64,000 nt of DNA from a virus (IMGVR_UViG_3300012007_000007:35434-99433); one strand, 5' to 3'; shown: positions 578-48,699, numbered from the stretch's first letter. Notes: generated by a model not told the origin, from the letters alone. A program made the numbers and translations.

Positions 578-1907
578 CCTTAAAACAATAACAATCGACC
601 ACCTGCTCAGCGTCTCCACGGACGACTACCTGAGGGAGACCCTGGCTAACGGTGACAGAGACCAGGCATCCGAAGCATGTCGCGCCATGCTTGCCGTGGC
701 GGACAATGCCGACATAGTGAAGCTCGCAAGGGAAAGAATCTTCTTCGCCTGGGACCACCGGGATGCAACCGAGGTGTCCGTCAGGTACTACCTGGAACCC
801 AGGGACCTCTTATCCAACCAGAACTGCGGACCTACCGTAGGTCCCCGGTTCCTCGACCGTCACGTCGCATATCCAGGTTGCGAAGTCAGCTTCCATGACG
901 GAAATGCCCTTACGGCGGAAGAGCTCAATCTGGCAAACAGCGTCGAGGTGGCCAGGGTATCCAGCAAGCAAATCAGGTTCAAGCCGACATTCGCAGTAAG
1001 CAGGCCTGACTACAGGGAATACAAGTCCGATGCGGACCAGCCCTACTACGGGAACTTCCGCATCGCCACTATGTACAGCACGTCCACGCCCAACCTTGCC
1101 CGTCTGACCGACTTGGCCATGGAAGGCAAGGAACGGTACCTGTCGTCGCACAACAAGATGCTGCGCAGGGTAATCGGGCTCCGCTTCATGCATGCGGCCA
1201 ATCTCCCGGGAACATCCGGGGGGCACGGGAGGAAGGTGCAGGACTTCTACCGGGCTTTCATCAAGAATACCGTAAGAGAACTGAGCAGATTCGAGTTGTC
1301 CATAACGCCGCTCCGGTTCCGCCTCGGCAAGCACGAGCTATACACCATGAAATTCATGGGGGCGTACTACGTCCATGTCAGCGGTGCTCCCGGATGCTTC
1401 GTGCATTTCCCGGAAGAAATTGAGGGCGTTCAAGGGGGCACTTACGAGTTCAACAAGGACACAACATTCGACACCTTCCGCAGGTTCCTCGAGTTCGCCA
1501 ACAGGGCGGACAGCCTTTGCGAACACATGAACCGGGCAAGCATGAGCGCAGTGTTCGAGGCGTTCGTCGTCCGAGGCATAACGGTGAACGTAGGCGCCTT
1601 CGGGGAGTTGCACGGAAAGGACACCGTAAGCGAGATTCTGTCCATTACGCCGGACAGGGAAAAGAAGTACGGATGGACCATGAGGAAATATGCCTGCACT
1701 GTCGAAGGCCATCCGGTAAGGGTATGCTACGGCAAGGGAGAAGCGGGTGCATTCCTCATGCCAAGGCCGCTGAATTCAAACCTGGTCGCCCTAATGGATT
1801 CAATATGCGGCACCCCGGAACCTCCGGGAGGAATCCGGGCACGCTACCGCAGGCTCGCCGCGACAGACAACTTCCGCGACCTCTACGAGGGACAGACGAC
1901 TGCATGA
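564..1907 (+). CDS. hypothetical protein (~447 aa)
   Basis: long ORF; GGAG RBS before ATG 564; ATGA-coupled to next gene. Confidence 0.7.
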   Translation: MARINLKTITIDHLLSVSTDDYLRETLANGDRDQASEACRAMLAVADNADIVKLARERIFFAWDHRDATEVSVRYYLEPRDLLSNQNCGPTVGPRFLDRHVAYPGCEVSFHDGNALTAEELNLANSVEVARVSSKQIRFKPTFAVSRPDYREYKSDADQPYYGNFRIATMYSTSTPNLARLTDLAMEGKERYLSSHNKMLRRVIGLRFMHAANLPGTSGGHGRKVQDFYRAFIKNTVRELSRFELSITPLRFRLGKHELYTMKFMGAYYVHVSGAPGCFVHFPEEIEGVQGGTYEFNKDTTFDTFRRFLEFANRADSLCEHMNRASMSAVFEAFVVRGITVNVGAFGELHGKDTVSEILSITPDREKKYGWTMRKYACTVEGHPVRVCYGKGEAGAFLMPRPLNSNLVALMDSICGTPEPPGGIRARYRRLAATDNFRDLYEGQTTA

Positions 1908-2305
1908 GAACGTTGCTTGACATACTGAAGTCGGCATCGCTGTACCGGTGCTTCTACCTGGCCATATGCATATGGTTCGTCAGGCGCATGCTGCGCAAGC
2001 TGATGCCGGAATCAGGCAACTATCTCCACCTGTACGTGGACGACTGCAGCAGGAAGGGTTTCCGGTTCAATATACACATGGCATCGGCCAGGTACCGTTC
2101 GATACTCGACCCCATGAACATAAAGCTGGACCGCCTCGGCTGGAAAGGCTGCATATGCATGGGCGAATTGGATAACGGCTTGCCGAACCTTGACATCAGC
2201 TCACCTATGCTACGGGAATATTTATCCTCGCAGGAAATATTCGAACTGGAGACCGCATACGATGGAATCAGCAAGAAACTATTCTCGAAGGAATACCGCC
2301 CATGA
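1904..2305 (+). CDS. hypothetical protein, divergent member of the AAYIAIALHFLRK leader family
   Basis: FYLAICIWFVRRMLRKL segment; ATGA overlaps on both sides. Confidence 0.6.
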   Translation: MRTLLDILKSASLYRCFYLAICIWFVRRMLRKLMPESGNYLHLYVDDCSRKGFRFNIHMASARYRSILDPMNIKLDRLGWKGCICMGELDNGLPNLDISSPMLREYLSSQEIFELETAYDGISKKLFSKEYRP

Positions 2306-2388
2306 ACGACATGGATGGCATTCTGGCAAAGCTGGCCATCGCGGTCACGACAATCGCACTGATAGCCGCAATCCACATCTGGTTTTAA
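2302..2388 (+). CDS. small membrane peptide (28 aa)
   Basis: MNDMDGILAKLAIAVTTIALIAAIHIWF; ATGA-coupled; not in the ORF track. Confidence 0.5.
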   Translation: MNDMDGILAKLAIAVTTIALIAAIHIWF

Positions 2389-2399
2389 GGAGAAAACGC

Positions 2400-3674
2400 A
2401 TGTCCGAACTTATTGAAGATACAATAATACCGAGCGCCGACGAAACGCTGAAGGTTACACTCAGAAAGATTACCAACGAAATCGTCTCAAGAATCCGTGA
2501 GGCTTCAGCCAACAGCCACATGCACGTCGACCTGCTAGACACCGGTGACAGGTTCCTCGATGCGGAAATCGACTACCTGCTATTGAAGCTGGCCGATTAC
2601 GGGTATACCTGCGAAAGGATAGTTACTGACGAGGGAAAGGAGGCTGTCCGAATATCCTGGTACAAGGTGTCGAATATCAAGCTGGACATCTCGACGGACC
2701 TCCCGTTCGGCAAGCAGGAACCCAGGAAATGTTCCGTGGTCGACAGGCTCAATCGGCTGGCCGACTGTTCCCTTGTCGGCCCAGTCGAACCTGTGGGCGT
2801 CAGTTCTGAACTTATCGACGATTGGCGTTTCTTCGACACCCTAATCAGGACAAATATCGAGGAGAAGCTCAGGTATCTCCCCAACTGGTCGCAGGGTCTA
2901 AACGACCACCAGATGGAAGTCGTACGTTTCTGGACCAGGAAAAAGGTGTGGGAACGTCTCCATGACAATCTTCGCGATGCCGTATCCGGTCTGTTCAAGT
3001 CCGATAACATAGGTCTAAGAGCAAACGACAGCGGGTTCATTTGTTCCTTCATCGGGAAGAACACCAAGAAACTGCTGAAAACTTACCTAAGGGCAATCCG
3101 ATACACCGAGACTGGACCGTTCGCCGAAGGGAAGGCACCAACCCTTCCGGTCCAAGTGGACAACATGGACTGCATATATGCATGGCAATACCCGAAGGTA
3201 GACGAGCTGGTTGAGCAAATCAACTACCTGACGGCATACAAGCTGTTCTTCGGGAAGGAGGACAAGTGGTTCCCGGGAAGTACCGAGTTCATCAAGGTAG
3301 TAAAGCGCTTCAACATGTATCCAACGGGACGATTCATCGAAGACAATATGGTACGACTGTGCCAGCTTCTCGGCAGCCTGTGCCATCGGACCGTACGATT
3401 TATACGGAAGGGGGATATGGTGCATCGCTGGACGAACGATGAATGCTGGAAGTCGTTGGAATCGGCTATGCACCATAGACTGATGGACCGAATTGCCATA
3501 CCAGATGAACAGGCGAATGGAAAATTCATTCAGCTGGCATATGAAAAGCTAACCAAGCGCGATGCTTGGTCAGTCTCGGATAAGACCAAGTGGGATACCG
3601 TTAAGGAAGTGATGCGTCTAGTCAGGGAGTCAGCAATAGAAGCTGTGTACCAGACAAGGACCACAATGCCGTAA
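2400..3674 (+). CDS. hypothetical protein (~424 aa)
   Basis: AAGGAG RBS, ATG 2400, long ORF. Confidence 0.7.
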   Translation: MSELIEDTIIPSADETLKVTLRKITNEIVSRIREASANSHMHVDLLDTGDRFLDAEIDYLLLKLADYGYTCERIVTDEGKEAVRISWYKVSNIKLDISTDLPFGKQEPRKCSVVDRLNRLADCSLVGPVEPVGVSSELIDDWRFFDTLIRTNIEEKLRYLPNWSQGLNDHQMEVVRFWTRKKVWERLHDNLRDAVSGLFKSDNIGLRANDSGFICSFIGKNTKKLLKTYLRAIRYTETGPFAEGKAPTLPVQVDNMDCIYAWQYPKVDELVEQINYLTAYKLFFGKEDKWFPGSTEFIKVVKRFNMYPTGRFIEDNMVRLCQLLGSLCHRTVRFIRKGDMVHRWTNDECWKSLESAMHHRLMDRIAIPDEQANGKFIQLAYEKLTKRDAWSVSDKTKWDTVKEVMRLVRESAIEAVYQTRTTMP

Positions 3675-3683
3675 CCTACGCGC

Positions 3684-4028
3684 TCATTTCAGGTTTGCCC
3701 GTATCGTATTAACGTAGCGGCCGGCCGCATACTTTCCATAATCGGCAGCATCCTGCAAAACGATGTATTTCTCGTACATCTTCCTGGCCCGTTTCCGGTC
3801 ATTCCCGGAAACGGCCTTTCTGGTTTTCGTGTAATAATTAAGGTCGTCGACTATACAGTCGTATTCCAGCTTGCTATGCTGTCCTGATATTGTTGAGTGT
3901 GACCTCGACGTACCTTGCCGCCACTTTCGGCCGGCAGGCGAAGTCGATACGGATAACTTCCTGGCCAGCTTCCGCAACATGTGTATCGCGATAGATACGT
4001 ATATTGCTATCCTCAAGTTTCTGGACAT
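3684..4028 (-). CDS. leader-family paralog
   Basis: MSRNLRIAIYVSIAIHMLRKL. Confidence 0.6.
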   Translation of the reverse strand: MSRNLRIAIYVSIAIHMLRKLARKLSVSTSPAGRKWRQGTSRSHSTISGQHSKLEYDCIVDDLNYYTKTRKAVSGNDRKRARKMYEKYIVLQDAADYGKYAAGRYVNTIRANLK

Positions 4029-22281: not shown

Positions 22282-24264
22282 CAAAAATCTAACAAAATCT
22301 ACAAGTAGTAGACAATTGCTGATTTTCTATGGCTTGTTTAAACAAACCATCGCAACGGCATTTTTCCAGACACTTCTTCACCTTCCACCTAGGAAGGAGT
22401 CCTTTCGGAATGAAGTACCTGTATTCGCTATCCCCTGCTTGAACTAGCAAGTTCCCTCTTAACACGGTCGAGGTAAGGCGAAATTTAATGTTCTTCGAGC
22501 TGTGGGTGTCGGCATTCTCGGAATGTCCGCACTCAATACAGCAAAATTCTTCTTGGGTCTGACGATTGCGGTCGTCAATGCAACCGCAATGTCCACACAT
22601 CTTCGATGTGTATTCGGCTTGCACAAGCGAAACTAACAGCCCGTAATGAGGTGCAATATGGATGAACTCGTCCTTCAAGGACGATAGTCCAGTCCGCAGA
22701 TGCAACCTACCTAGATTAAATCCGTTTGAGTCATTAGCATGGAGCCTACTTCCTTTGAAGCCGTTAAGGTTCTCCATTGCGATGTGCTTAATCCCCTTAG
22801 CAGCAAAGGACTTACAAAGCAGAACGATGGTTCGCCTGTTAGATTCGTTCAGCTTTAAGGTGATTGCATCAATGCGAGCCTTGTCCTTCTTGGAAATCTT
22901 GAATGCATCATGTTCTTCATCCTTGTCAAACCTGGCATTGTAGTTCTTCTGCTTCCGGTCTATCTTGAGCAGTTCGGTTTCTAGGTCAGTTATCAAGGCA
23001 TCGTCGTTCGGAATGAACTCCCCTGTGCTCAATGCGAACATGTTGTGCTTGGAATTGATATCTATGCCGACGGTATTCTCTTCGGTTATCTCATCGTCAT
23101 TCTTGTAACGATAGCCGTCCCTAGCGAGACCTACATGGATGTCCTTGCCCCTAACAACCATCGTATAGGATGTATCCGTTCCGTTGCAGTATCGGTTCAG
23201 CGAGCGATGGTATGCCTTGTTGTACTTGAACGGCATACACAGGGTATTTGGACTATCGCCACGGTAGCCTTGGTTGTACCAATCCCAAGAAACCTCGATG
23301 AAATAATCGAACTTGCCAGTCTCATTCCTTCTAGCATCCACGATAGGACGCTTGATACGGCTACGACCACTGAATGTAAGTGATTCGAAGGTAATCTTTC
23401 CACGCTTCTCGTATTCGGCAAATACGGTGGTTCTCCTAGATAGAGCCAACCTCATAAGGCGTTCAAAGCCGAACTTCTTAATCTTCTCCAAGATGACTCG
23501 GTAGAACTTCTGCTTGGATTCTATCACGGTAGGAATTACTGATTCCAGCCAGTAAACGGTTTCATCCTTGCCGTATCGAGCAAGCCAAGTCAATACCTTC
23601 GTAAGTTCGGTTTTCTTGGTATGACTTTCTATAGACTTCAATTCGCCTTTCTTATGCCCATGCGAATTTATCTTATAGAACGATGGAACAAGTTCTTCAA
23701 CCTTGACGAACTCTATCTTTTTCCGAATGGCTTCGAACCGGAGCTGATAGGCTCGCCACACATCCTCGATTGCCTTCTTCAAATAATGACTCGATAACCG
23801 AGTATTAAAGGTAGGATTGAAGAAGTTGAACGCTTCGAACTTCGTCATGTCCTGGAAGCCGAGCATAACCGAGAAGAACACTTCGGATATGTCGTTCCTT
23901 ACGGCACGGATTTCCTCTGCACGATGGATGATTTCGGCTCGCTTGGTGTCGGACATCATAATCGGATAGAACGCAGCGGAGAACTGCGACTCAAACCTAT
24001 TGCTTAATGTCCAACAATGCTTGCTCATACAATACAAAAATGGCTCGTAAGGAACTAAGTGTCGAGTTCAATTCCAAACGAGCCATCATAAATGGTTTCC
24101 GCTCAGTCCAATGAAGAACTCGACTAATTCATTGAACCTCTATACATCAAGTTTATAACAATGTACAAAATTTTATGCCGATTTTCAAACTATTTTTCAA
24201 AGAAAATGCTAGTAGAATTTGGTAGATTTTGCTAAATTTAGATAGATTTTATGCTAACTGTTGG
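22282..24264 (-). mobile_element. IS607-like non-autonomous element carrying a large TnpB
   Basis: GTTGG at both junctions (GG core); AAAATCTA-type ~10-bp repeats at both ends, inverted relative to each other; no serine recombinase. Confidence 0.7.
22289..24037 (-). CDS. tnpB: large (582 aa) TnpB-family nuclease
   Basis: VGIDIN, IAMENL, CGHCG...CIECG, NADTHSSKN. Confidence 0.85.
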   Translation of the reverse strand: MYCMSKHCWTLSNRFESQFSAAFYPIMMSDTKRAEIIHRAEEIRAVRNDISEVFFSVMLGFQDMTKFEAFNFFNPTFNTRLSSHYLKKAIEDVWRAYQLRFEAIRKKIEFVKVEELVPSFYKINSHGHKKGELKSIESHTKKTELTKVLTWLARYGKDETVYWLESVIPTVIESKQKFYRVILEKIKKFGFERLMRLALSRRTTVFAEYEKRGKITFESLTFSGRSRIKRPIVDARRNETGKFDYFIEVSWDWYNQGYRGDSPNTLCMPFKYNKAYHRSLNRYCNGTDTSYTMVVRGKDIHVGLARDGYRYKNDDEITEENTVGIDINSKHNMFALSTGEFIPNDDALITDLETELLKIDRKQKNYNARFDKDEEHDAFKISKKDKARIDAITLKLNESNRRTIVLLCKSFAAKGIKHIAMENLNGFKGSRLHANDSNGFNLGRLHLRTGLSSLKDEFIHIAPHYGLLVSLVQAEYTSKMCGHCGCIDDRNRQTQEEFCCIECGHSENADTHSSKNIKFRLTSTVLRGNLLVQAGDSEYRYFIPKGLLPRWKVKKCLEKCRCDGLFKQAIENQQLSTTCRFC

Positions 24265-24489: not shown

Positions 24490-25386
24490 TTAAGGTCCAA
24501 TTCTACCCGGAAAATCCCGTATCAGGACGGATTCGTCCGACCAACCACCGGTCAAGCGTCCGTCGGCATGGAGTACGAAGTTACGGATGTACCCGCCTTC
24601 CGTTTCCAGCCGTTGTTCCAGGGCGCCACCCACCTCACGGTATTCGACTTTAACGCCGGAAACGTTTCCGTACACGCACCTGCACTTGGTCGATTCCTTG
24701 CGTCCGCCCAGCAGGTCTCTGAACATGCCAGCGAGCACGGGGTCCGGCGTGGAAAAATAATCCGACCTGAACAGGATGCTTGAAATACCGGCATCTGCGG
24801 CAGCCTGGATATATCTGTTTACAAAGTACGCATCCGCACCCGGATACAGTGTACAGTTCAGCCGAAATTCCAGAGGCTTGTCACCGAACAAACCGAATAT
24901 ACCAGTTATTTCGTCCAGTCCGGGAATTTTTCTGTCCCCAAAGATGTGCCGGTTTGCCTCGTCGTCGTAATGATGCCGGCTGACATTCAGGTATTTCAGC
25001 TTAGAAAGCGTATCGAGCATAACGAAATTCTTGGCCAGGTACCTTCCGTTCGTGGTGAGCGCGTAATAGTCCACACCGCTCTCATCCAGTTCACTGAACA
25101 GGCGCGATAGCGTAATGTGGTCACCGACGATGAGCGGTTCCCCGCCGGTAATTGAAACCCGGTCAATCGCCCCGGCAGCTACCAGCTCGTCCAGACATGC
25201 CTTCAGGATATCTGGGGAAAGGACGCCTGCACCTCGGCTCGATGAACAGAACGGGCAATGCGCATTGCAGATGTTCGTGAATTCCACGTACAGCGTGCGC
25301 CGATTTGAAACCGTCGAGCAGCATGCGCCCGAATACACGCGATATTCCTTCCCGAATATAGATAATGTTCTCGTTTGCAAATCCAT
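24490..25386 (-). CDS. radical SAM protein, likely leaderless
   Basis: CNAHCPFC (CxxxCxxC), SITGGEP, TTNG; ATG 4 nt after TATATTTG. Confidence 0.85.
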   Translation of the reverse strand: MDLQTRTLSIFGKEYRVYSGACCSTVSNRRTLYVEFTNICNAHCPFCSSSRGAGVLSPDILKACLDELVAAGAIDRVSITGGEPLIVGDHITLSRLFSELDESGVDYYALTTNGRYLAKNFVMLDTLSKLKYLNVSRHHYDDEANRHIFGDRKIPGLDEITGIFGLFGDKPLEFRLNCTLYPGADAYFVNRYIQAAADAGISSILFRSDYFSTPDPVLAGMFRDLLGGRKESTKCRCVYGNVSGVKVEYREVGGALEQRLETEGGYIRNFVLHADGRLTGGWSDESVLIRDFPGRIGP

Positions 25387-25542
25387 GCCACAAATATAGC
25401 AAAAACACCGGTCGGCTACCGGTTCCTTCCCCTGGATAACCATATAAATGCCACACAAATCCGTTCCCGTTTTCACAAAATAGAATCGATTTTGCAAAAA
25501 ATGATATAATTTATTGAACAGATAACACATACGAGGTGAAAA

Positions 25543-26616
25543 ATGTACAGAGGAATACAGAACGTGCGGTCGGCCGACGATGACATCCAGACAACACCGG
25601 CCCAGGAAGAGGAAATCAGGAAATGCAAGGAGTCCCCCGAATACTTCTTCAGGAACTACTGCTACATCCGCAATGCCAAACAGGGGCGACACCTGTTCCA
25701 GCCACGCCCACGGCAGGTCGCCGAACTGCCGGTGCTTTCGGGGGAGAAGCTGGTGAAGTCCGACTGGTACCGGCAATCCGGGTACACTACGCTCGTAATG
25801 GCCTTCATGCTATGGAAGGCGATGTTCACTCCACGGACATCATGCCTGTACATGGTACCCAAGAAAGAGCTGGCATATGAGAACTTCGACGAGAAGGTAC
25901 GAAAAATGTACCTTGGACTGCCGCTGTGGCTCCAGACCGGCATAAAGGAATGGACCGAGAAGGGGATACAGTTCGCCAACGGGAGCATATACTACGCCAG
26001 GGCCGCATCGGCGGGAAATGCCCCGGGAATCGGCTGGGACTACATCTTCATAGACGAGTTCGGGTGGATTAAGGACAAGGCGATGCTCGAGATAGTGAAC
26101 ACGGTGTTTCCCGTAGTCCACTATTCCAAGAATAAGCACCTGATACTCGGGCAGAGCCACCGCTTCGGCAGGCAGACCCCGGCAAACCTGATGTTCTGGA
26201 AGAATACGACCATGCCGTTCCACGTGTCCGAGTTCACGTGGGACCAGGACGAGCGGCTGGACAAAAAGTGGGCCGATGCTGAAGTCATGCGTATCGGGAA
26301 AGCCAGGTTCGACCACGAGTATGGCGGGGTAATTACCTTGTCCGACCCCGGACTCGAGCCGCCGGAAAGGTTCGGACAGTGGACCGTCTGGAAGGAAGGC
26401 CTGCACCCGAATGTAAAGGAGCAGCAGTCCGCCGAATACCTGTGCGCGGTCGCCGTAATTGACCGGGTCACCGGATTGCCGGTCGGCAAGCCGTTCCGGA
26501 AAGTGTTACCGGTAGACGGTAACGGGGGTTTCAACGGCTTGATAGCCAATGACGAGGTCTACCAGACGGTCGTCGCCTGGATGCCGTTGCCGGAACTTCC
26601 CGTTTTCCACCGGTAG
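25543..26616 (+). CDS. degenerate T4 gp17-like terminase ATPase domain without nuclease domain; DUF551-like tail
   Basis: CKESPEYFFRNYCYI, RQSGYTT (Walker A Lys to Tyr), LPLWLQ, FANGS, IFIDEF; ends VVAWMPLPE. Confidence 0.75.
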   Translation: MYRGIQNVRSADDDIQTTPAQEEEIRKCKESPEYFFRNYCYIRNAKQGRHLFQPRPRQVAELPVLSGEKLVKSDWYRQSGYTTLVMAFMLWKAMFTPRTSCLYMVPKKELAYENFDEKVRKMYLGLPLWLQTGIKEWTEKGIQFANGSIYYARAASAGNAPGIGWDYIFIDEFGWIKDKAMLEIVNTVFPVVHYSKNKHLILGQSHRFGRQTPANLMFWKNTTMPFHVSEFTWDQDERLDKKWADAEVMRIGKARFDHEYGGVITLSDPGLEPPERFGQWTVWKEGLHPNVKEQQSAEYLCAVAVIDRVTGLPVGKPFRKVLPVDGNGGFNGLIANDEVYQTVVAWMPLPELPVFHR

Positions 26617-26631
26617 ACTCCCGCTGACTAT

Positions 26632-26644
26632 TTTGCTATATTTG
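26632..26644 (+). promoter_or_regulatory. TAnnTTTG-type promoter driving array 1 (identical copy at 28395..28407 drives array 2)
   Basis: TTTGCTATATTTG, the motif that recurs upstream of operons across the window. Confidence 0.75.
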
Positions 26645-26648
26645 AGGT

Positions 26649-26759
26649 ATCGACACCGGAAAAAATGAGCGAACCCCGGAATAACCGGCAACCATAGTGC
26701 ATTTTTCTGGTGTCGTGCCACAACCAAGCCCTTGTGGTTCAACGAGTTACCGGAAGTAC
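26649..26759 (+). ncRNA. putative structured leader RNA, copy 1
   Basis: starts at the predicted TSS; stem ATCGACACCGGAAAAAATG/CATTTTTCTGGTGTCG; hairpin CCACAA/TTGTGG. Confidence 0.5.
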
Positions 26760-27520
26760 GGTTTAACGGGGCTCCCAAAGCGAGGAATTAAAACTTGAGT
26801 TACTAGAAGGTGGATTTCATGGAAAACAGTCTGTCGATGCAGTGGTTTACCGGTGCTTCCAAAAGCAGGTTTATGACGTTGCAAGATAAAATCAATCAGT
26901 TTGGCTTGCTGAAAAGAGATTGGAATGGCTACGATGCCGCTCCTATTCCATCTTCTGTTTTAGATGACGCGAAGCTGTTTTTGCAAAGCCTTAGAGATGG
27001 CAACATAGACCTCAATGGATGGGAAGTTTTCCCGACTGCTAGAGAGACGATTCAGTTTGAAAAGACTGTTGGCGAAAATTACATCGAAATAGAAGTTTGT
27101 TCGAACGGACGGTTGACTTATTACTCAGAAGGTCATGAAAACCTAGAAATAGAATCTATCGGTATGAAAGAAGTGATTGAGAAAATTTCGGATGTCTTTG
27201 GATAAAAGAGATTTGTCGGTTTAACGGGGCTCCCAAAGCGAGGAATTAAAACAAAAAATGACCGAACTGAAAGCACACAGAATAATAGGCCTGAATGAAG
27301 AATGTGCTAGTGTTGACAATGATTACTACCTCAAGTCCGAAGCCGACAAGGTGATTGCGGAAAAGGACAAGGAGATTCAAAGGCTTGAAAACTTATGTGA
27401 ATCGTATAGAATAGATTGCGATAATCTTGCTATTCGTGAAGCAAACGCTTGTAAAGAGATTGAACGAGACAACAAGCAACTCCGTGGTTTAACGGGGCTC
27501 CCAAAGCGAGGAATTAAAAC
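26760..27520 (+). CRISPR. CRISPR-like array 1: 35-nt repeats at 26760, 27218, 27486 and a degenerate copy at 26844; gene-sized spacers; no cas genes seen
   Basis: three identical GGTTTAACGGGGCTCCCAAAGCGAGGAATTAAAAC copies after a leader. Confidence 0.5.
26873..27205 (+). CDS. hypothetical protein inside an array segment
   Basis: MTLQDKINQF...WNGYDAAPI. Confidence 0.6.
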   Translation: MTLQDKINQFGLLKRDWNGYDAAPIPSSVLDDAKLFLQSLRDGNIDLNGWEVFPTARETIQFEKTVGENYIEIEVCSNGRLTYYSEGHENLEIESIGMKEVIEKISDVFG

Positions 27521-27536
27521 CCTGTGCATGGATTGA
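27258..27536 (+). pseudogene. phage coiled-coil protein (YLKSEADKVIAEKD type) running into repeat 27486
   Basis: last codons GLTGLPKRGIKT are the repeat itself. Confidence 0.55.
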
Positions 27537-27594
27537 GCCATTGCCCATACTGCAATCGCAGGCTGGTAAAGACACTGAAAGAAAACGACCATAA

Positions 27595-28056
27595 ATGAGG
27601 ATGGATATGTCCAGAATCTACGCAAACGAAGAAAACAGAGAACACCTCCGACAAAAACTCGGGGACCGAGGAGTCGAAATCTTCGACTACTTCAAAGACC
27701 ACGGCTTCGATTACATGGGGTTCTATACTGGATTCATCATTACACGGAATTGCGAATACTTAAAGGACCCTCCGTACGGATACATCATCTTCCCCAAGGG
27801 AATGCGCGACCCGCATGTAAGTGGATGCTTCGGATACATGTACAGAGTTCAGTGGGGCGTTGACCTTGACGGGAACGAAGACTTTATCCTCTATACTTCG
27901 TTTGCTCCGCAGGACGAAATGGTACCGAAGTACCTGCTGGGCAAGCTGGGCGACAAGGAATTGCAGCTTCTCGTATCGGAACGGGCGAAAGACATGTTCA
28001 AAACGTGGAAAAGGGTTCGAACAGTAGAAATGAAACGCCAGGACGTGACCATATAG
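27595..28056 (+). CDS. hypothetical protein inside an array segment
   Basis: 153 aa; ATGA-coupled to an upstream CPYC-containing gene fragment. Confidence 0.6.
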   Translation: MRMDMSRIYANEENREHLRQKLGDRGVEIFDYFKDHGFDYMGFYTGFIITRNCEYLKDPPYGYIIFPKGMRDPHVSGCFGYMYRVQWGVDLDGNEDFILYTSFAPQDEMVPKYLLGKLGDKELQLLVSERAKDMFKTWKRVRTVEMKRQDVTI

Positions 28057-28345
28057 GACAGATATTAACTCGAAATTTATAGGTCTTGTATTTTATGGAC
28101 GGAAAGCAATTCCTCAAAGAAGCCAAGGAAGCATGTTCGGAACACTACAAAGTGAAAAATGCAAAGAAAAAGTAAATTTATTTAATGCTTATGTATATTT
28201 TGGTCCAGGCTGGATTAGATGGGAGTCTCCAAAATGTAATTATGCACTGAATTATGAAAGAATTGGCATTAAACCGGCATGACATACGGCGACTGGATGT
28301 ATGATGAAGATGATGACGCACCATGCACACAATATCAGTAATCTA

Positions 28346-28558
28346 CCGTTGCCGGAACTTCCCGGTTTCCCCCGGTAAGCCACCGGTGGATATTTTTGCT
28401 ATATTTGAGGTATCGACACTGGAAAAAATGAGCAAACCCCGGAACAACTGGCAGCACTAGCACATTTTTTCTTGTGTCGTGCCGCAGCCAAGTACCTGTA
28501 GCTCAACGAGTTACCGGAAGTACGGTTTAACGGGGCTCCCAAAACGAGGAATTAAAAC
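28346..28558 (+). repeat. promoter-leader-repeat unit, copy 2
   Basis: homologous to 26584..26794. Confidence 0.9.
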
Positions 28559-28593
28559 GAACAGGTGAAGTATTGCAAGGAGCAAGGATACTT

Positions 28594-28815
28594 ATGATAA
28601 TCACGTTTAAGAAGACCATCGGAACTGCCGCCTATGACAGCGATGCCATCGTTAAAATGGAATTCAGCCCAAACTGCGGCATGGTAATCACCTATGCCGC
28701 ATCCGGTAAAGGTAACGCCGCGCCTGTCATCCAGGCCGACCGTCATTACATAACCGAAGCGGAATACGAGAAGGTTCTCGAACAATGGAAGAAATCGAAG
28801 GAGACCTCCAAATGA
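28594..28815 (+). CDS. hypothetical protein inside an array segment
   Basis: MIITFKK; ATGA-coupled to fragment EQVKYCKEQGYL. Confidence 0.6.
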   Translation: MIITFKKTIGTAAYDSDAIVKMEFSPNCGMVITYAASGKGNAAPVIQADRHYITEAEYEKVLEQWKKSKETSK

Positions 28816-29183
28816 TGAAGAAGGTACTTGACAAGGTGGAGGACCTGGTCATGTTCAAGGCGAAGCCCACCCCGTAACAGCAGGTCAAGGAACTCGACGA
28901 GCAAATCGAGGACCTGAAAAAGAAGCGCCAGCTCGTCCTTGACGGGGTGGAGAAGAAGTACGTGAGCAAGATGCTATCCCGCATAATGGGCCAGTGGGTC
29001 ATCGTGGGCGGGTGGAGCGATGACGACGAGCATCCGTTCCACGGGCAGCATTACACCATCTACAAGGTCGTGAAGGCCCTGCAGTGGGAAGGCGGGAACA
29101 GTTTCCGCATCATCGCGAAGCACATGATGTACCTGTCCGCCGAAGGATACCGGTTTAACGGCGCTTCCAACACGAGGAATTAA
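28812..29183 (+). pseudogene. gene with in-frame TAA at 28875, running into repeat 29152
   Basis: MMKKVLDK...KPTP-stop-QQVKELDEQ continues in frame into ORF 28947. Confidence 0.65.
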
Positions 29184-29228
29184 AACAATATGTCCATTGG
29201 TTCAACCGCTAATAAAGGAGCAGGGTAC

Positions 29229-29408
29229 ATGAAATACCGGGCAAAATATACCCGTATCGTAGAAATAGATGCCGATGGCAATACGGCCGAGAAAGCGCTC
29301 AACACGTTGCGGGCACAGATGATGGAGGACATTGCCGACCCAGGACGCGGCAGCGGCTTCACTGTGATACTGGTCGATGAGCGCCGAAGCCCCCGAAGAC
29401 GGCGGTAA
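29229..29408 (+). CDS. small hypothetical protein inside an array segment
   Basis: AAAGGAG RBS, MKYRAKY. Confidence 0.55.
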   Translation: MKYRAKYTRIVEIDADGNTAEKALNTLRAQMMEDIADPGRGSGFTVILVDERRSPRRRR

Positions 29409-29481
29409 CGGAAGTGGTGGCGTTATTTAGGGTTTAACTGTGCTTCCAAAAACACGAGGTCAAACATAAAACGGTATGGTT

Positions 29482-29802
29482 ATGAGTGACGCGCAACATC
29501 AAGGATATTCTATCGCGGAGATGCTAGAGCCCAGTCGGATTACTCGGCTGGCCGTTTCGTGCGAGCCCGCTCCCGAAGAACTTGAAGAATTTCATAGACT
29601 ATTTATGAATATGGATATACGGACCTGTGATAGAAAAACAGTGGACGCATATCTTAAAGAATTGGGGAATATGGCTCACGGACTCTCCAAGGATGGCGAT
29701 GAATCCAGGGCTTCCATTTTTATGCTGGATTCTCTCGGTCCGCTGATGGAAGACCACCAGATACCAGAAGATGTGCCTGTAGATACCGGCAAAATGGAAT
29801 AA
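29482..29802 (+). CDS. hypothetical protein, paralog of 31697..31990
   Basis: PEE...TCD...FMLDSL shared. Confidence 0.6.
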   Translation: MSDAQHQGYSIAEMLEPSRITRLAVSCEPAPEELEEFHRLFMNMDIRTCDRKTVDAYLKELGNMAHGLSKDGDESRASIFMLDSLGPLMEDHQIPEDVPVDTGKME

Positions 29803-29806
29803 GAAA

Positions 29807-30151
29807 ATGACCAACATCTCCCTTATTGTCCATCTGGGTGACGGGTGTGTCATCGTGGGCACGCTCGTATCATTCAAGCAGAACCTTCCCGTGCCTACCT
29901 TCTTCGATTGTGCCATCCACCAGTTACCGGAGGCATCATGCAGTGTTTCCGTCATGACCGATACCATGGGGACCCTCGACTTCGACGCCAGACACGTAGT
30001 CAAGATGGGGACCGACGAGGGCCACATGGTCGAAATCAAGGCAGCGATGGATGTCGTACTGTACCTGGAATCCCTGCTGGCCTTGGACCGCAAGGTCGAA
30101 GGTTCCGTTGAACAACTCTTACAGCAAATCTGCGAGGATGCCTCCACATGA
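29807..30151 (+). CDS. hypothetical protein
   Basis: 114 aa ORF. Confidence 0.55.
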   Translation: MTNISLIVHLGDGCVIVGTLVSFKQNLPVPTFFDCAIHQLPEASCSVSVMTDTMGTLDFDARHVVKMGTDEGHMVEIKAAMDVVLYLESLLALDRKVEGSVEQLLQQICEDAST

Positions 30152-30618
30152 CACGTATAGACCTTGAACAGATTGCTTCCGAATTCGGACTGGCTGTGGA
30201 GAAGAGCGATGTCGGGACCTACAAGCAATGGAAGAATGCGCAGATGGACCTGTATCTCCCCGGAAACAAGGAAGCCGGCTACCTGGTGCGAGGGGTGTAC
30301 CCGCCCGTGGAGAACTATGTCCATTATCCGTGCATAGACAACCTATACCTGCCCGCCGGGGTGACCAGGTACAACGGCAAGCCAACGTTTAGCGGACGGC
30401 AGCAGATATACAACGACGATTTCAACGAGGGATGGCTCCGGAGGGAGCTCGGGAAGCTGATTGAAGAATACAGGAGAAGCCACGATGGCCAAATACCGCA
30501 GAATGACTGTTCCGGGCTACGAGAGCCCGTTCATCGCCGTGATACCTGGGATACCGGCGTCCATGGAGTCCGACAGGGAGCCCGAGTACGAGTACAAGGA
30601 CAAACTGGGCAAAGATGA
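30148..30618 (+). CDS. hypothetical protein
   Basis: ATGA-coupled; C-terminus overlaps the next gene. Confidence 0.5.
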   Translation: MTRIDLEQIASEFGLAVEKSDVGTYKQWKNAQMDLYLPGNKEAGYLVRGVYPPVENYVHYPCIDNLYLPAGVTRYNGKPTFSGRQQIYNDDFNEGWLRRELGKLIEEYRRSHDGQIPQNDCSGLREPVHRRDTWDTGVHGVRQGARVRVQGQTGQR

Positions 30619-30667
30619 CGACATCTGGGAATGGGAAAAGTGCGAAAACGAGGACAATGATGCGTAA
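30485..30667 (+). CDS. small acidic hypothetical protein
   Basis: AGGAG RBS, MAKYRR. Confidence 0.5.
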   Translation: MAKYRRMTVPGYESPFIAVIPGIPASMESDREPEYEYKDKLGKDDDIWEWEKCENEDNDA

Positions 30668-31364
30668 GAAGTTTATCCAAGCAAACCCGTTCCTCAAACA
30701 GAGCGAGATTTCTTCCAATTTCCATGGGGAGGAAGTGTATAAGTCTCACACATGGCATCCGTATTATCGTTATGAAGAGCGTGATGAACTTGGGAGACTT
30801 ACCGGTGTATACTATGCCGATGAATACAAGAAGCCAAGGCCGAGGAGACTCGTAGTCAAGTATTCAGATGACAGCAAGCGTCCCTATGCAATATGGTTCT
30901 GCCACGATGGCTCAGAAGACATGCACTTCTGTTGTAAGTACAAGAAAAACGGAGACCTTGACACGATTTACTTCTGGGGCAACGGTGGAAATACATGCAA
31001 CGAGTTTCATTACAAAAAGGCGATACAGACGACCACTATTAAAACAGGTCGCCGAGTTGAATACAAGGAAAGTTGGCCATCAATTACAATCAACGGTCAC
31101 CCGGCATTGCTCCTCCGTAAACTTCCAGACATGACCAAGGTTACTGGATTCTACTATATCCACGAGAAAGACCCTCTATTTCCCCAGCCCCTAATTGAAA
31201 ACGACTGGGCAATCCACGACTGGCTAGGTATCAGTGCCGAAACCCTGTACGACAAGTACCCAAAGGAAAAGCCACGCCCCTTTGACCCTAAAATGGACGG
31301 ATATTGCATAAATATGATGATGAAAACCCAGAACGCGATTAACAGACCACAACTCGGAGAATAA
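30657..31364 (+). CDS. hypothetical protein
   Basis: GAGG RBS, 235 aa. Confidence 0.6.
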   Translation: MMRKKFIQANPFLKQSEISSNFHGEEVYKSHTWHPYYRYEERDELGRLTGVYYADEYKKPRPRRLVVKYSDDSKRPYAIWFCHDGSEDMHFCCKYKKNGDLDTIYFWGNGGNTCNEFHYKKAIQTTTIKTGRRVEYKESWPSITINGHPALLLRKLPDMTKVTGFYYIHEKDPLFPQPLIENDWAIHDWLGISAETLYDKYPKEKPRPFDPKMDGYCINMMMKTQNAINRPQLGE

Positions 31365-31457
31365 AATAATCTATGCGAACAGAACTAAAAGAAATGCTGC
31401 AAGGTAAGCTCGACGCTTTCGGGTTTAACGGCGCGTCCAAAAACACGAGTTCAAACA

Positions 31458-31990: not shown

Positions 31991-32277
31991 ACCTTTAGCT
32001 ATGGTTTCTGTATGCAAATATAGCAAATTTGGGACTATCGGTGGCGGTCGCACAGGTCGGAAGTGTGGATTCCACCGGCGTTGGTCCGGGTCATGCCGGA
32101 AATGTGGCAAATGGGGATACCGGGGATACCGAAATGTCCCCAGTTGCAGCCGTTCGGAAATCAAGGCAAGTATGGTATTCCGGCCTCTCCCGGCAGGCAC
32201 CCAGTCGTTGTGCAGGTGTACTTGGAGGTCAATGAACTATGACCCGAAGTCGGTGACATTGAATCCGCGATTTCTGC

Positions 32278-48127: not shown

Positions 48128-48225
48128 ATAGTTCTCCTGCAGAATGGCATACCGCTCGGTGAGACATTGTACTCGTCATCAAGTCTGAAACGCATAAGTG
48201 TTATATGTTATCTTTGGAAGCACCG

Positions 48226-48699
48226 TTAAAGACCAAGCTCCTTGGCCGTTTTGACGATAGCCTGTACCATGCCGTCGTACTTTCCGTTTGAGTCCATTTT
48301 TTTACCGCGTCTCAACTCATCCATAATTTCGGCATCAATCGCTGCTGCACTACTATTGCACATATCTGGCCTCCATAGCTTCCTGCAACCGCTGTTTATC
48401 CCTCTGGCTATGCTATATAGCAGTTCGTCGGGCTCGCGAGTGTATATCCTAAGCTCATCTACAATCTTCTCATCAATGTTCGCTGGACAACGGCCACGAA
48501 AAATTTCATTTAGGAGAAAATGCGAGGGGACTGCAAGCATGTCGAAACGGTGTACGTATTCTCTGACCTCGGCAACAGTACGCCAGCACTCGATGAAATC
48601 GTCGGTTCCCCTGTCCGATTTCCGCCACCTTTCAGCAGAGTTGTCTTCATACGCAGCATCCAACAGTATGACGAAACGGGCTTTCGCATGTATGCCCAC
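48226..48699 (-). CDS. hypothetical protein, start uncertain
   Basis: 157 aa; overlapping ORF 48510..48779 may be a frameshifted N-terminus. Confidence 0.45.
   Translation of the reverse strand: MGIHAKARFVILLDAAYEDNSAERWRKSDRGTDDFIECWRTVAEVREYVHRFDMLAVPSHFLLNEIFRGRCPANIDEKIVDELRIYTREPDELLYSIARGINSGCRKLWRPDMCNSSAAAIDAEIMDELRRGKKMDSNGKYDGMVQAIVKTAKELGL

Follow-up and report, generated by a model that had tools for sequence, protein, structure and literature searches.

Organization of the repeat locus

The window analysed here, a stretch of 64,000 nucleotides of viral DNA (IMGVR_UViG_3300012007_000007:35434-99433), belongs to a virus record of 222 kb (G000) that is 78% complete, and it carries between positions 26,760 and 31,456 an array of 35-nt repeats alternating with segments of the size of genes and small operons. 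A terminase-like gene, a promoter motif, and a leader precede the first repeat, and the features of the locus are listed in Table 1. The sequence-only reading of this DNA had taken the locus for an array of the CRISPR type that stores gene-sized pieces, and the coordinates, identity, and co-orientation of the repeats as well as the gaps between successive copies (49, 340, 233, 1003, 593, 244, and 1956 nt) that it described were all recovered on the plus strand. The 35-nt repeat did not occur by chance in any of 100 shuffles. The list of copies missed six others in G000, which were located at 126791, 127074, 127533, and 129016 on the plus strand and at 153937 and 83665 on the minus strand. All 14 genomic copies were found to be oriented with their flanking genes, including the single copies on the minus strand that occupy ordinary gene junctions. 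No relative was found among viral contigs for the gene beside the single minus-strand copy.

The alignment of 50 copies gave the consensus GGTTTAACGGTGCTTCCAAAACGAGGAATTAAAAC, in which nearly all 35 positions were 80–100% conserved. The information content was close to zero at the base preceding position 1 and at the base following position 35, in agreement with the earlier remark that the flanks hold no consensus. No stable fold of the repeat was found, as the consensus gave only −2.4 kcal/mol, and RNAalifold returned no consensus structure for the 50 copies; the unit is not palindromic. Its 3′ half is A-rich, with a predicted unpaired fraction of 0.65 against 0.44–0.48 in the flanks, and contains the motif GAGGA at 8 nt from the end of the unit, and TAA stop codons are present in two frames within the repeat. 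The unit has neither a sigma-70 consensus nor the motif TTGCTATATTTG found at the array heads; a TGCTT core is present.

When 241 million metagenome records were scanned, 13 loci with the repeat were obtained, of which 12 remained after removal of one duplicate. The repeats in the 12 related loci (L numbers below denote individual loci) were always co-oriented and spaced by 226–2136 nt from start to start. The repeat-bearing clade consists of uncultured jumbo phages from gut or rumen-type metagenomes that are related to T4 via the terminase. The strict repeat pattern had no match in IMG/VR viral contigs and a blastn search of the repeat against cultured phages returned nothing. A loose 15-base pattern gave 24 single matches, which were taken as chance because none of them had more than one copy. 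The repeat family was also absent from G001 and G002, which are relatives via the terminase-like gene and via a sigma factor, respectively.

The assembly of the window was found to be sound, as an identical 17 kb was obtained from three pipelines on one run, and two other assemblies of that run (SRR948090) matched the window at 100% over 11–17 kb. A Logan contig of the same run (L070) stops inside the first repeat at window position 26768; unitig-level assemblies are broken by the repeats. No strain-level variants were recovered, as the contigs with an identical terminase-like protein represented only one sample assembled three times.

Table 1. Features of the repeat locus and of two related sites in the same virus record (window coordinates unless stated otherwise).
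Feature	Position	Strand	Remarks
Terminase-large-subunit-like ATPase paralog	25543–26616	+	Pfam Terminase_6N, E 6e-8; directly upstream of head 1
Promoter motif TTGCTATATTTG, head 1	26633–26645	+	Precedes every array leader in relatives
Leader 1	26646–26759	+	Long stem around a 10-codon upstream ORF (26665–26697), plus a second hairpin
Repeat copy 1	26760–26794	+	Identical to copies 2 and 3
49-nt segment	26795–26843	+	Last codons of one gene, ribosome-binding site, first 8 codons of the next
Degenerate repeat copy	26844–26878	+	3′ end contains the ATG of the next gene (26873)
Cassette gene	26873–27205	+	110 aa (ATG 26873) or 128 aa (ATG 26819); stop 15 nt before the next repeat
Repeat copy 2	27218–27252	+	Next ATG 5 nt on; ribosome-binding site from the repeat
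Coiled-coil-like ORF	27258–27536	+	76 codons, enters repeat 3 without a stop of its own
Repeat copy 3	27486–27520	+	Identical to copies 1 and 2
634-nt operon piece	27521–28154	+	Last 25 zinc-ribbon codons; intact 153-aa gene (27595–28056); ~20 opening codons of a 328-aa gene, starting at 28095
AT-rich filler	28155–28345	+	No match in any related locus compared
Head 2	28346–28523	+	3′ duplicate of the terminase-like gene, hairpin (28372–28386), promoter motif (28396–28408), leader 2 (28409–28523)
Repeat copy 4	28524–28558	+	1 mismatch
593-nt operon piece	28559–29151	+	Last ~12 Tpt1/KptA-like codons; intact 73-aa gene (28594–28815); first 113 codons of a 167-aa gene (28812–29151)
Repeat copy 5	29152–29186	+	4 mismatches; ATG of the 72-aa gene 3 nt on
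72-aa cassette gene	29190–29408	+	Stop 25 nt before the next repeat
Repeat copy 6	29431–29465	+	10 mismatches
Four-gene segment	29476–31364	+	108, 114, 156, and 249 aa; coupled stops and starts; no internal repeat
16-codon gene start	31373–31421	+	Enters the last repeat
Last (trailer) repeat	31422–31456	+	9 mismatches; abuts the stop of a convergent minus-strand gene
Single repeat-family copy	48198–48232 (= G000 83665)	−	Its TAA terminates the upstream 157-aa gene
Sigma factor gene	G000 ~125.9–126.77 kb (L049 ~1290–2091), outside the window		Stop 26 nt before the G000 126791 copy

The repeat at gene junctions

The repeat was found to sit where the stop of one segment is followed by the next segment's start, and its orientation was always that of the genes. 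At about two thirds of the ~33 junctions, an upstream open reading frame (ORF) of at least 60 aa stops 3–37 nt before the repeat, and at the remaining ones the ORF ends at the TAA of the repeat itself or reads through. On the other side, a start codon lies 0–41 nt downstream of the repeat in most copies. Fourteen starts are placed no farther than 6 nt past the repeat end (two of them inside the repeat), and none of these has room for a ribosome-binding site (RBS) of its own; the GAGGA of the repeat lies 8–14 nt upstream of all 14. Among the starts at 10 nt or more past the repeat, 25 of 31 have their own RBS. Because the starts 0–6 nt past the repeat would rely on its GAGGA, the repeat would have to lie within the transcript. 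Read as RNA, the repeat would be a portable translation stop and start signal, an “expression socket” situated behind one promoter and a regulatory leader, that would supply an RBS, a stretch of A-rich open sequence, and stop codons in two of the frames.

Exchange of segments between related phages

The related arrays were compared on both sides of the repeats. L043 and L046 have the leader and repeat 1 in common, lose similarity at the last base of this repeat, and regain it at the first base of repeat 2 with 99.5% identity over 1063 nt; the segments exchanged in between, of 254 nt in L043 and 506 nt in L046, are unrelated. A complete repeat-segment-repeat unit is common to L044 (4063–4474) and L039 (275–686) at 95% identity with unrelated DNA on both sides, and the 9.2 kb beside the array are 99.97% identical between L039 and L043, whose arrays have nothing in common. 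The sequence-only reading had proposed to look for the gain or loss of segments at the repeats in related phages, and whole segments do differ precisely there.

Among 1176 copy pairs, the identity past the unit edges was at chance level except where the whole segment is common. In copy pairs that have one flank in common for 47–60 nt the other flank diverges within 0–1 nt, and in the cleanest of the pairs sharing one side the differences in the repeat are confined to the unshared side; for example, positions 22–35 are identical where the downstream segment is common and positions 1–12 where the upstream segment is common. Because the repeat variants track the flank on their own side, we infer that the crossovers take place inside the repeat. 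The repeat polymorphisms travel with the adjacent segment, which points away from acquisition by an integrase-type enzyme of the kind suggested earlier. Since it is the same at every junction, the repeat would act as a 35-nt homology patch for a phage or host recombination system, by which segments could be swapped, deleted, or duplicated between co-infecting relatives. The same process has been proposed for the promoter-early stem-loop (PeSL) cassettes of T4-type phages. The repeat is, in our judgement and with moderate confidence, the standard junction of a hypervariable accessory-gene operon, in which a PeSL-like cassette is coupled to recombinational shuffling.

Genes cut flush with the repeat

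Several segments of the array begin or end inside genes. The gene ending in ...SAEGY at 29151 corresponds to the first 113 codons of a 167-aa gene, and ten homologs (P0002–P0011) extend ~55 aa further; an in-frame TAA at 28875–28877, where the ten homologs have GAA (Glu), makes the truncated gene a nonsense pseudogene as well. The Tpt1/KptA-like gene, the 73-aa gene, and the 167-aa gene form one tightly coupled operon in the repeat-less L054, and the 95% identity to L065 ends at 29151. The repeat-less L065 also has an IS30-like transposase (rve domain, 1154–2110) among the same accessory genes. The 74 nt past the 27486 repeat are identical to L058, in which they form the last part of a zinc-ribbon gene (CPLC...CPYC) extending upstream, and the homology to L064 (92%) and L058 (89%) spans exactly 27521–28154 and ends inside the next gene. 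Similarly, the 49-nt segment matches L046 4109–4150 at 90%, and the two-gene stretch to which it belongs is whole in L046 and L066. The 506-nt piece at L046 4016–4521, which is flush with repeats at both ends, begins within a 105-aa gene of L066 and stops close to the end of a 152-aa gene.

The source loci of the cut pieces contain no repeat. The operons in L058, L064, L054, and L066 are continuous and repeat-less, so that the sources do run on past the junctions, which had been named as a check on the sequence-only reading. The cut genes that it described are borne out by homologs for the tails after 27520 and 28558, for the ...SAEGY end, and for the 49-nt segment, and no homologs were found for IKRYGYE (7 codons), for ...DNKQLR, or for the 16-codon start at 31373. 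The simple insertion of a 35-nt element was ruled out because the two flanks of a copy are never contiguous in the repeat-less relatives that were found. L066 belongs to a public assembly with the repeat-less operon (GCA_024712465.1, a 325-kb contig), which is the source type of two array fragments, and the contig may be a near-complete relative.

Array heads and composition of the window array

The promoter-leader described by the sequence-only reading is real and present twice. The motif TTGCTATATTTG has 45 copies in the genome, each upstream of genes, and those in the window include 25390–25402 (minus strand), 26633–26645, 28396–28408, and 32014–32026 (minus strand). An ATG lies 4 nt past the 13-base match in about a third of the 45 copies, and this spacing suggests that leaderless messages may be widespread in the phage. 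A generic promoter and terminator scan of the array gave no more sites than in shuffles.

The ~115-nt leader is conserved in eight arrays. In the alignment of the eight sequences, 94% of the cells in the leader structure were paired against 40–52% in slid controls, and compensatory changes were found in seven leader pairs. The 3′ arm of the leader, GGAAGTAC, pairs with positions 10–17 of the first repeat, and this leader-repeat helix is paired in 8/8 arrays. The 10-codon upstream ORF at 26665–26697 and 28428–28460 (MSEPRNNRQP and variants) shows several synonymous changes among relatives and may be translated into a leader peptide that serves in regulation. A small hairpin with a T-run, formed by CCACCGGT...ACCGGTGG, lies at 25407–25423 on the minus strand and at 28372–28386 on the plus strand, immediately before the promoter motif at the array heads. 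This hairpin-plus-promoter module resembles true PeSLs and is found again in L043 (4620–4680), at the distal end of its array.

The terminase-like protein is ~27% identical to the T4-type gp17 of cultured phages. The last ~10 codons of its gene are duplicated at 28346–28379 in head 2, and the gene is not present beside the arrays of the relatives L043, L046, and L040. Head 2 is 79–90% identical to head 1. Leader 1 is 93% identical to the leader of L044, and leader 2 is 95% identical to that of L043. With two heads that resemble the leaders of L044 and L043, respectively, the locus combines two arrays from different lineages.

The segments between the heads and the trailer are of different kinds. 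The join at 28154/28155, between the 634-nt operon piece and the AT-rich filler, is not at a repeat. No homolog was found for the coiled-coil-like ORF at 27258–27536, which may be cut off. A supposed family comprising a 92-aa ORF of the window and L039 turned out to be an artefact, as it was the repeat itself that had been translated. The 114-aa gene of the four-gene segment is 90% identical to one in the L039 array, the 16-codon start at 31373 is probably a remnant, and the homology to L044 returns 4 nt past the trailer repeat. The window array is a worn mosaic in which two heads are combined with two single-gene cassettes that are intact, one segment of four genes, and several operon fragments that are dead.

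Comparison with known repeat systems

The closest comparison is with the PeSL and promoter-middle stem-loop (PmSL) cassettes of T4-type phages (Arbiol et al, 2010, PMC2839356; Comeau et al, 2014, PMC4122927). As described there, a PeSL reaches from the upstream stop codon to the RBS and start of the next gene and marks insertions and deletions between relatives. The locus described here agrees with this account in having a repeated intergenic module with a stop-to-RBS span in hyperplastic regions of small orphan genes, in having breakpoints of insertion, deletion, and replacement at the modules with homologous recombination as the proposed engine, and in belonging to a phage that is T4-related via the terminase. 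It differs in that the unit is fixed at 35 nt with sharp edges and has no stem-loop and no recognisable promoter of sigma-70 or host type, and in that the units lie in one operon, behind one promoter and a structured leader which pairs with copy 1. Also, several segments are cut within genes, flush with the repeat, whereas the excerpts of the PeSL papers describe exchanges of whole ORFs. The promoter-plus-hairpin modules of the heads (25407–25423 and 28372–28408) are closer to PeSLs than the 35-nt unit is. PeSL-type cassettes are further marked by an early (sigma-70-like) or Mot-type promoter, by a stable stem-loop that serves as terminator or attenuator, and by mini-circles that arise when neighbouring modules recombine. 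The unit shares the position and the evolutionary behaviour of PeSLs but shows neither of two traits that define them, the promoter and the stem-loop, and extends the PeSL idea past the classic T4-type phages to a unit without recognisable promoter or hairpin.

The locus resembles a CRISPR array in that its repeats are direct, co-oriented, and 35 nt long and have GTTT...AAAC ends, they follow a promoter and a leader whose end forms a hairpin with the first repeat, the intervening sequences are unrelated, and the leader-proximal copies are identical while the trailer copies have decayed. When the usual definition of direct repeats of ~23–55 nt in one orientation with spacers of ~20–70 nt was applied, the repeats agreed with it and the spacers did not, being 49–1956 nt long instead of regular and short and consisting mostly of whole genes with their own start signals. 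Furthermore, the array has no cas genes, the repeat forms no array in the species genomes scanned, single copies occur on both strands, and the repeat variants show crossovers inside the repeat. Neither Cas1 (PF01867) nor Cas6 (PF01881) was found in the 222-kb record, at its 78% completeness, in searches in which the positive controls worked, and the Rfam CRISPR-repeat (CRISPR-DR) families gave no match even at E ≤ 10. The strict repeat pattern had 0 copies in 185,579 species genomes (one genome each), and no CRISPR-spaced array of the repeat was present in the 241 million metagenome records. A looser scan of the same species genomes for two 5′ halves at CRISPR-like spacing returned only a Vibrio protein-coding repeat and a 16-nt tandem. 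The Vibrio match (L053, Vibrio caribbeanicus, 767–3760) is a chance match of the 5′ core of the repeat to the DNA of the protein repeat MFNGA.SFNQPIG.WDTS, which belongs to a surface-protein family; the phage unit reads FNGAS in one frame. The link to CRISPR drawn by the sequence-only reading could not be upheld on these results and on the single copies at ordinary junctions. Its wider idea of an array that stores and expresses operon pieces holds in a loose sense, in that the locus collects and would express foreign operon pieces, and is not supported as to a CRISPR-type origin.

Integrons are similar in having a promoter at the head, promoterless accessory genes in a row, a recombination site after each, and a content that varies among relatives. 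They differ in that integrons have the tyrosine integrase IntI beside attI and Pc and no recombinase domain was found near the arrays here, either in the window or in the seven ORFs upstream of three related arrays, in that the site is a short direct repeat carrying an RBS and not an imperfect palindrome like attC, and in that the segments here may be multi-gene pieces or gene fragments. The seven ORFs matched no Pfam family, recombinases included, and contained no TnpB-like gene. In the window itself, a gene on the other strand (22289–24037), located behind two genes, encodes a TnpB-family protein of 582 aa that carries a TNB domain of Cas12f1-like type (E 1.8e-10), and a radical SAM gene (24490–25776, minus strand) is next to it.

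The start-associated sequences of Cluster K mycobacteriophages and the stoperators of L5-like phages are also short, asymmetric, conserved motifs that are found at many gene junctions, follow the direction of transcription, and lie near stops and starts or overlap them. These are 13–17 bp long and occur genome-wide, and the stoperators are repressor sites. To our knowledge, neither has been reported as a point of cassette exchange.

Discussion

Several points weigh against the repeat being simply a shuffled translational junction. The 5′ half of the repeat, TTTAAC.G.GCTTCC, is the best-kept part of the diverged copies, which the RBS role leaves unexplained; this half could bind a protein or pair with a leader-like GGAAG motif. 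The unit has no recognisable promoter or stem-loop, unlike PeSLs, and one pair of copies with a shared leader differs in the 5′ half of the repeat. Exchange inside the repeat cannot alone create junctions that cut genes, of which at least five are flush within 0–2 nt. When the lost part of the source was compared with the adjacent part of the repeat, an origin by short homology was weakly supported at three 5′-side junctions (P 0.018, 0.13, and 0.13), and there was no signal at three 3′-side junctions (P 0.44–0.75). On balance, we favour an account in which the flush cuts go back to illegitimate joins that took place rarely between related genomes, with exchange and conversion within the unit being frequent afterwards.

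The flush cuts would also speak for an active joining that is specific for the repeat edges, in which pieces from co-infecting phages would integrate with duplication of the repeat, or a mobile 35-nt unit would insert and be followed by repeat-repeat deletion. The enzyme would then be an unrecognised one of the phage or the host, and the reaction would be a CRISPR-adaptation-like or target-duplicating integration. Five operon pieces (27521, 28559, 29151, 26795–26843, and L046 4016–4521) cut genes 0–2 nt from the repeat edges with no hitch-hiking bases past them. The identity of leader-proximal copies and the decay of trailer copies in the window, L043, and L040, and the confinement of the L043/L046 difference to the leader-proximal segment, would also be expected of it, and a leader-repeat hairpin is described for CRISPR arrays in the title of PMC13187072. 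However, the five pieces all have the orientation of the array, dead fragments included, for which the chance under random integration, with either orientation open to each of the five, is ~1 in 32, the junction at 28154 is not at a repeat, and the segment common to L039 and L044 has neighbours that differ on either side, unlike what polar growth would give. Furthermore, about two thirds of the junctions are at natural gene ends, the repeat variants go with the adjacent flank, no simple insertion with both flanks contiguous in a relative was seen, Cas1 is absent, and Pfam gave no family, recombinases included, for the seven ORFs that lie upstream of other arrays. We regard active joining as unlikely on this evidence, and a little less likely still in the particular form in which arrays grow by the joining of arbitrary operon pieces to both repeat edges, with the repeat duplicated and no length ruler. 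If true, it would be a genuine gene-capture system in a virus.

The main functional rival is that the repeat works at the level of DNA, where the sigma factor of the phage or another of its regulators would recognise it as a promoter or operator; each small gene would then have a switch to itself, and the leader-repeat palindrome would be a full operator. The stop of a gene for a phage sigma factor of ~255 aa (assigned to PHROG 351 at E 3e-14, with weak matches to regions 2 and 4 of Pfam Sigma70) lies 26 nt ahead of the second repeat cluster, and every copy of the repeat is upstream of a gene and in its direction. The 5′ half contains TGCTT, which is the core of the T4 Mot box used in PmSL cassettes (PMC4122927). 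A repeat-less relative also shows no sigma gene in its fragment. Against these, the sigma factor of G002 is 50% identical and yet G002 has no repeats; taken together, the repeat-less G001 and G002 neither tie nor untie the sigma factor and the repeat. Conservation extends over all 35 positions, the would-be spacer included, and the spacing to the start codon is variable, as against the fixed 4 nt at the putative leaderless promoters of the phage. The starts 0–6 nt on would depend on the GAGGA of the unit, which would place the unit in the transcript, and the leader pairs with the repeat in a covarying RNA structure. The genome gave no match for T7-type RNA polymerase, RegA, RegB, or the MotA DNA-binding domain in searches in which the control genomes were silent too, so that these negatives carry no information and the lack of a MotA-like domain is a weak argument. 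A promoter or operator role is thus considered improbable.

The repeats might also mimic a host CRISPR repeat, either as RNA anti-CRISPR (Racr) decoys or solitary repeat units (SRUs), or as a degenerate phage array processed by the host Cas6. Racr/SRU candidates are recognised by ≥90% identity to a known CRISPR repeat and are solitary small RNAs (SRUFinder; Camara-Wilpert et al, 2023, PMC10651486). The phage repeats resemble them as short CRISPR-repeat-like sequences downstream of a promoter and without cas genes, and the promoter-leader, the leader-repeat hairpin, and the decayed trailer copies would fit such mimicry, as would the TnpB/Cas12f-like gene 2.7 kb away. The resemblance extends to the 35-nt unit with its GTTT...AAAC ends and to the ATTAAAAC tail, which is similar to the handle of 8 nt that type I and type III repeats have. 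In contrast to Racr/SRU candidates, no such repeat was found in the species-genome scans or in Rfam, and the copies are clustered within an operon, where they overlap stops and RBSs and form gene junctions, being neither solitary nor small non-coding RNAs. The two pattern scans detected no copy and no CRISPR-spaced pair of the repeat, the related metagenome loci all have gene-sized spacing, Cas6 and Cas1 are missing, and the diverged copies retain the 5′ half and not the 3′ handle. Mimicry is for these reasons very improbable. The removal or skipping of the 35-nt units in RNA, as mini-introns or by translational bypass with rejoining of the frames, was ruled out: deleting the 27486 copy does join open frames of 87 and 25 codons, but this lone frame-joining copy leads into a different gene, the 25-codon tail being the end of the zinc-ribbon gene, the true upstream part of which is seen in L058, no other copy has long open frames on both sides, and most copies come after a stop codon.

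The locus is a warning case for CRISPR finders, as a leader, a leader-repeat hairpin, 35-nt repeats, and trailer decay can occur together without CRISPR. The flush cuts inside genes make it testable whether phages possess a dedicated, repeat-directed capture of DNA. As the junction of a shuffled accessory operon, a universal 35-nt unit would allow any gene that is inserted to be translated and would turn each junction into a site for crossovers. The small accessory genes are probably for host takeover or counter-defence, and the locus would show how a fast-changing set of such genes is kept up in giant gut phages.

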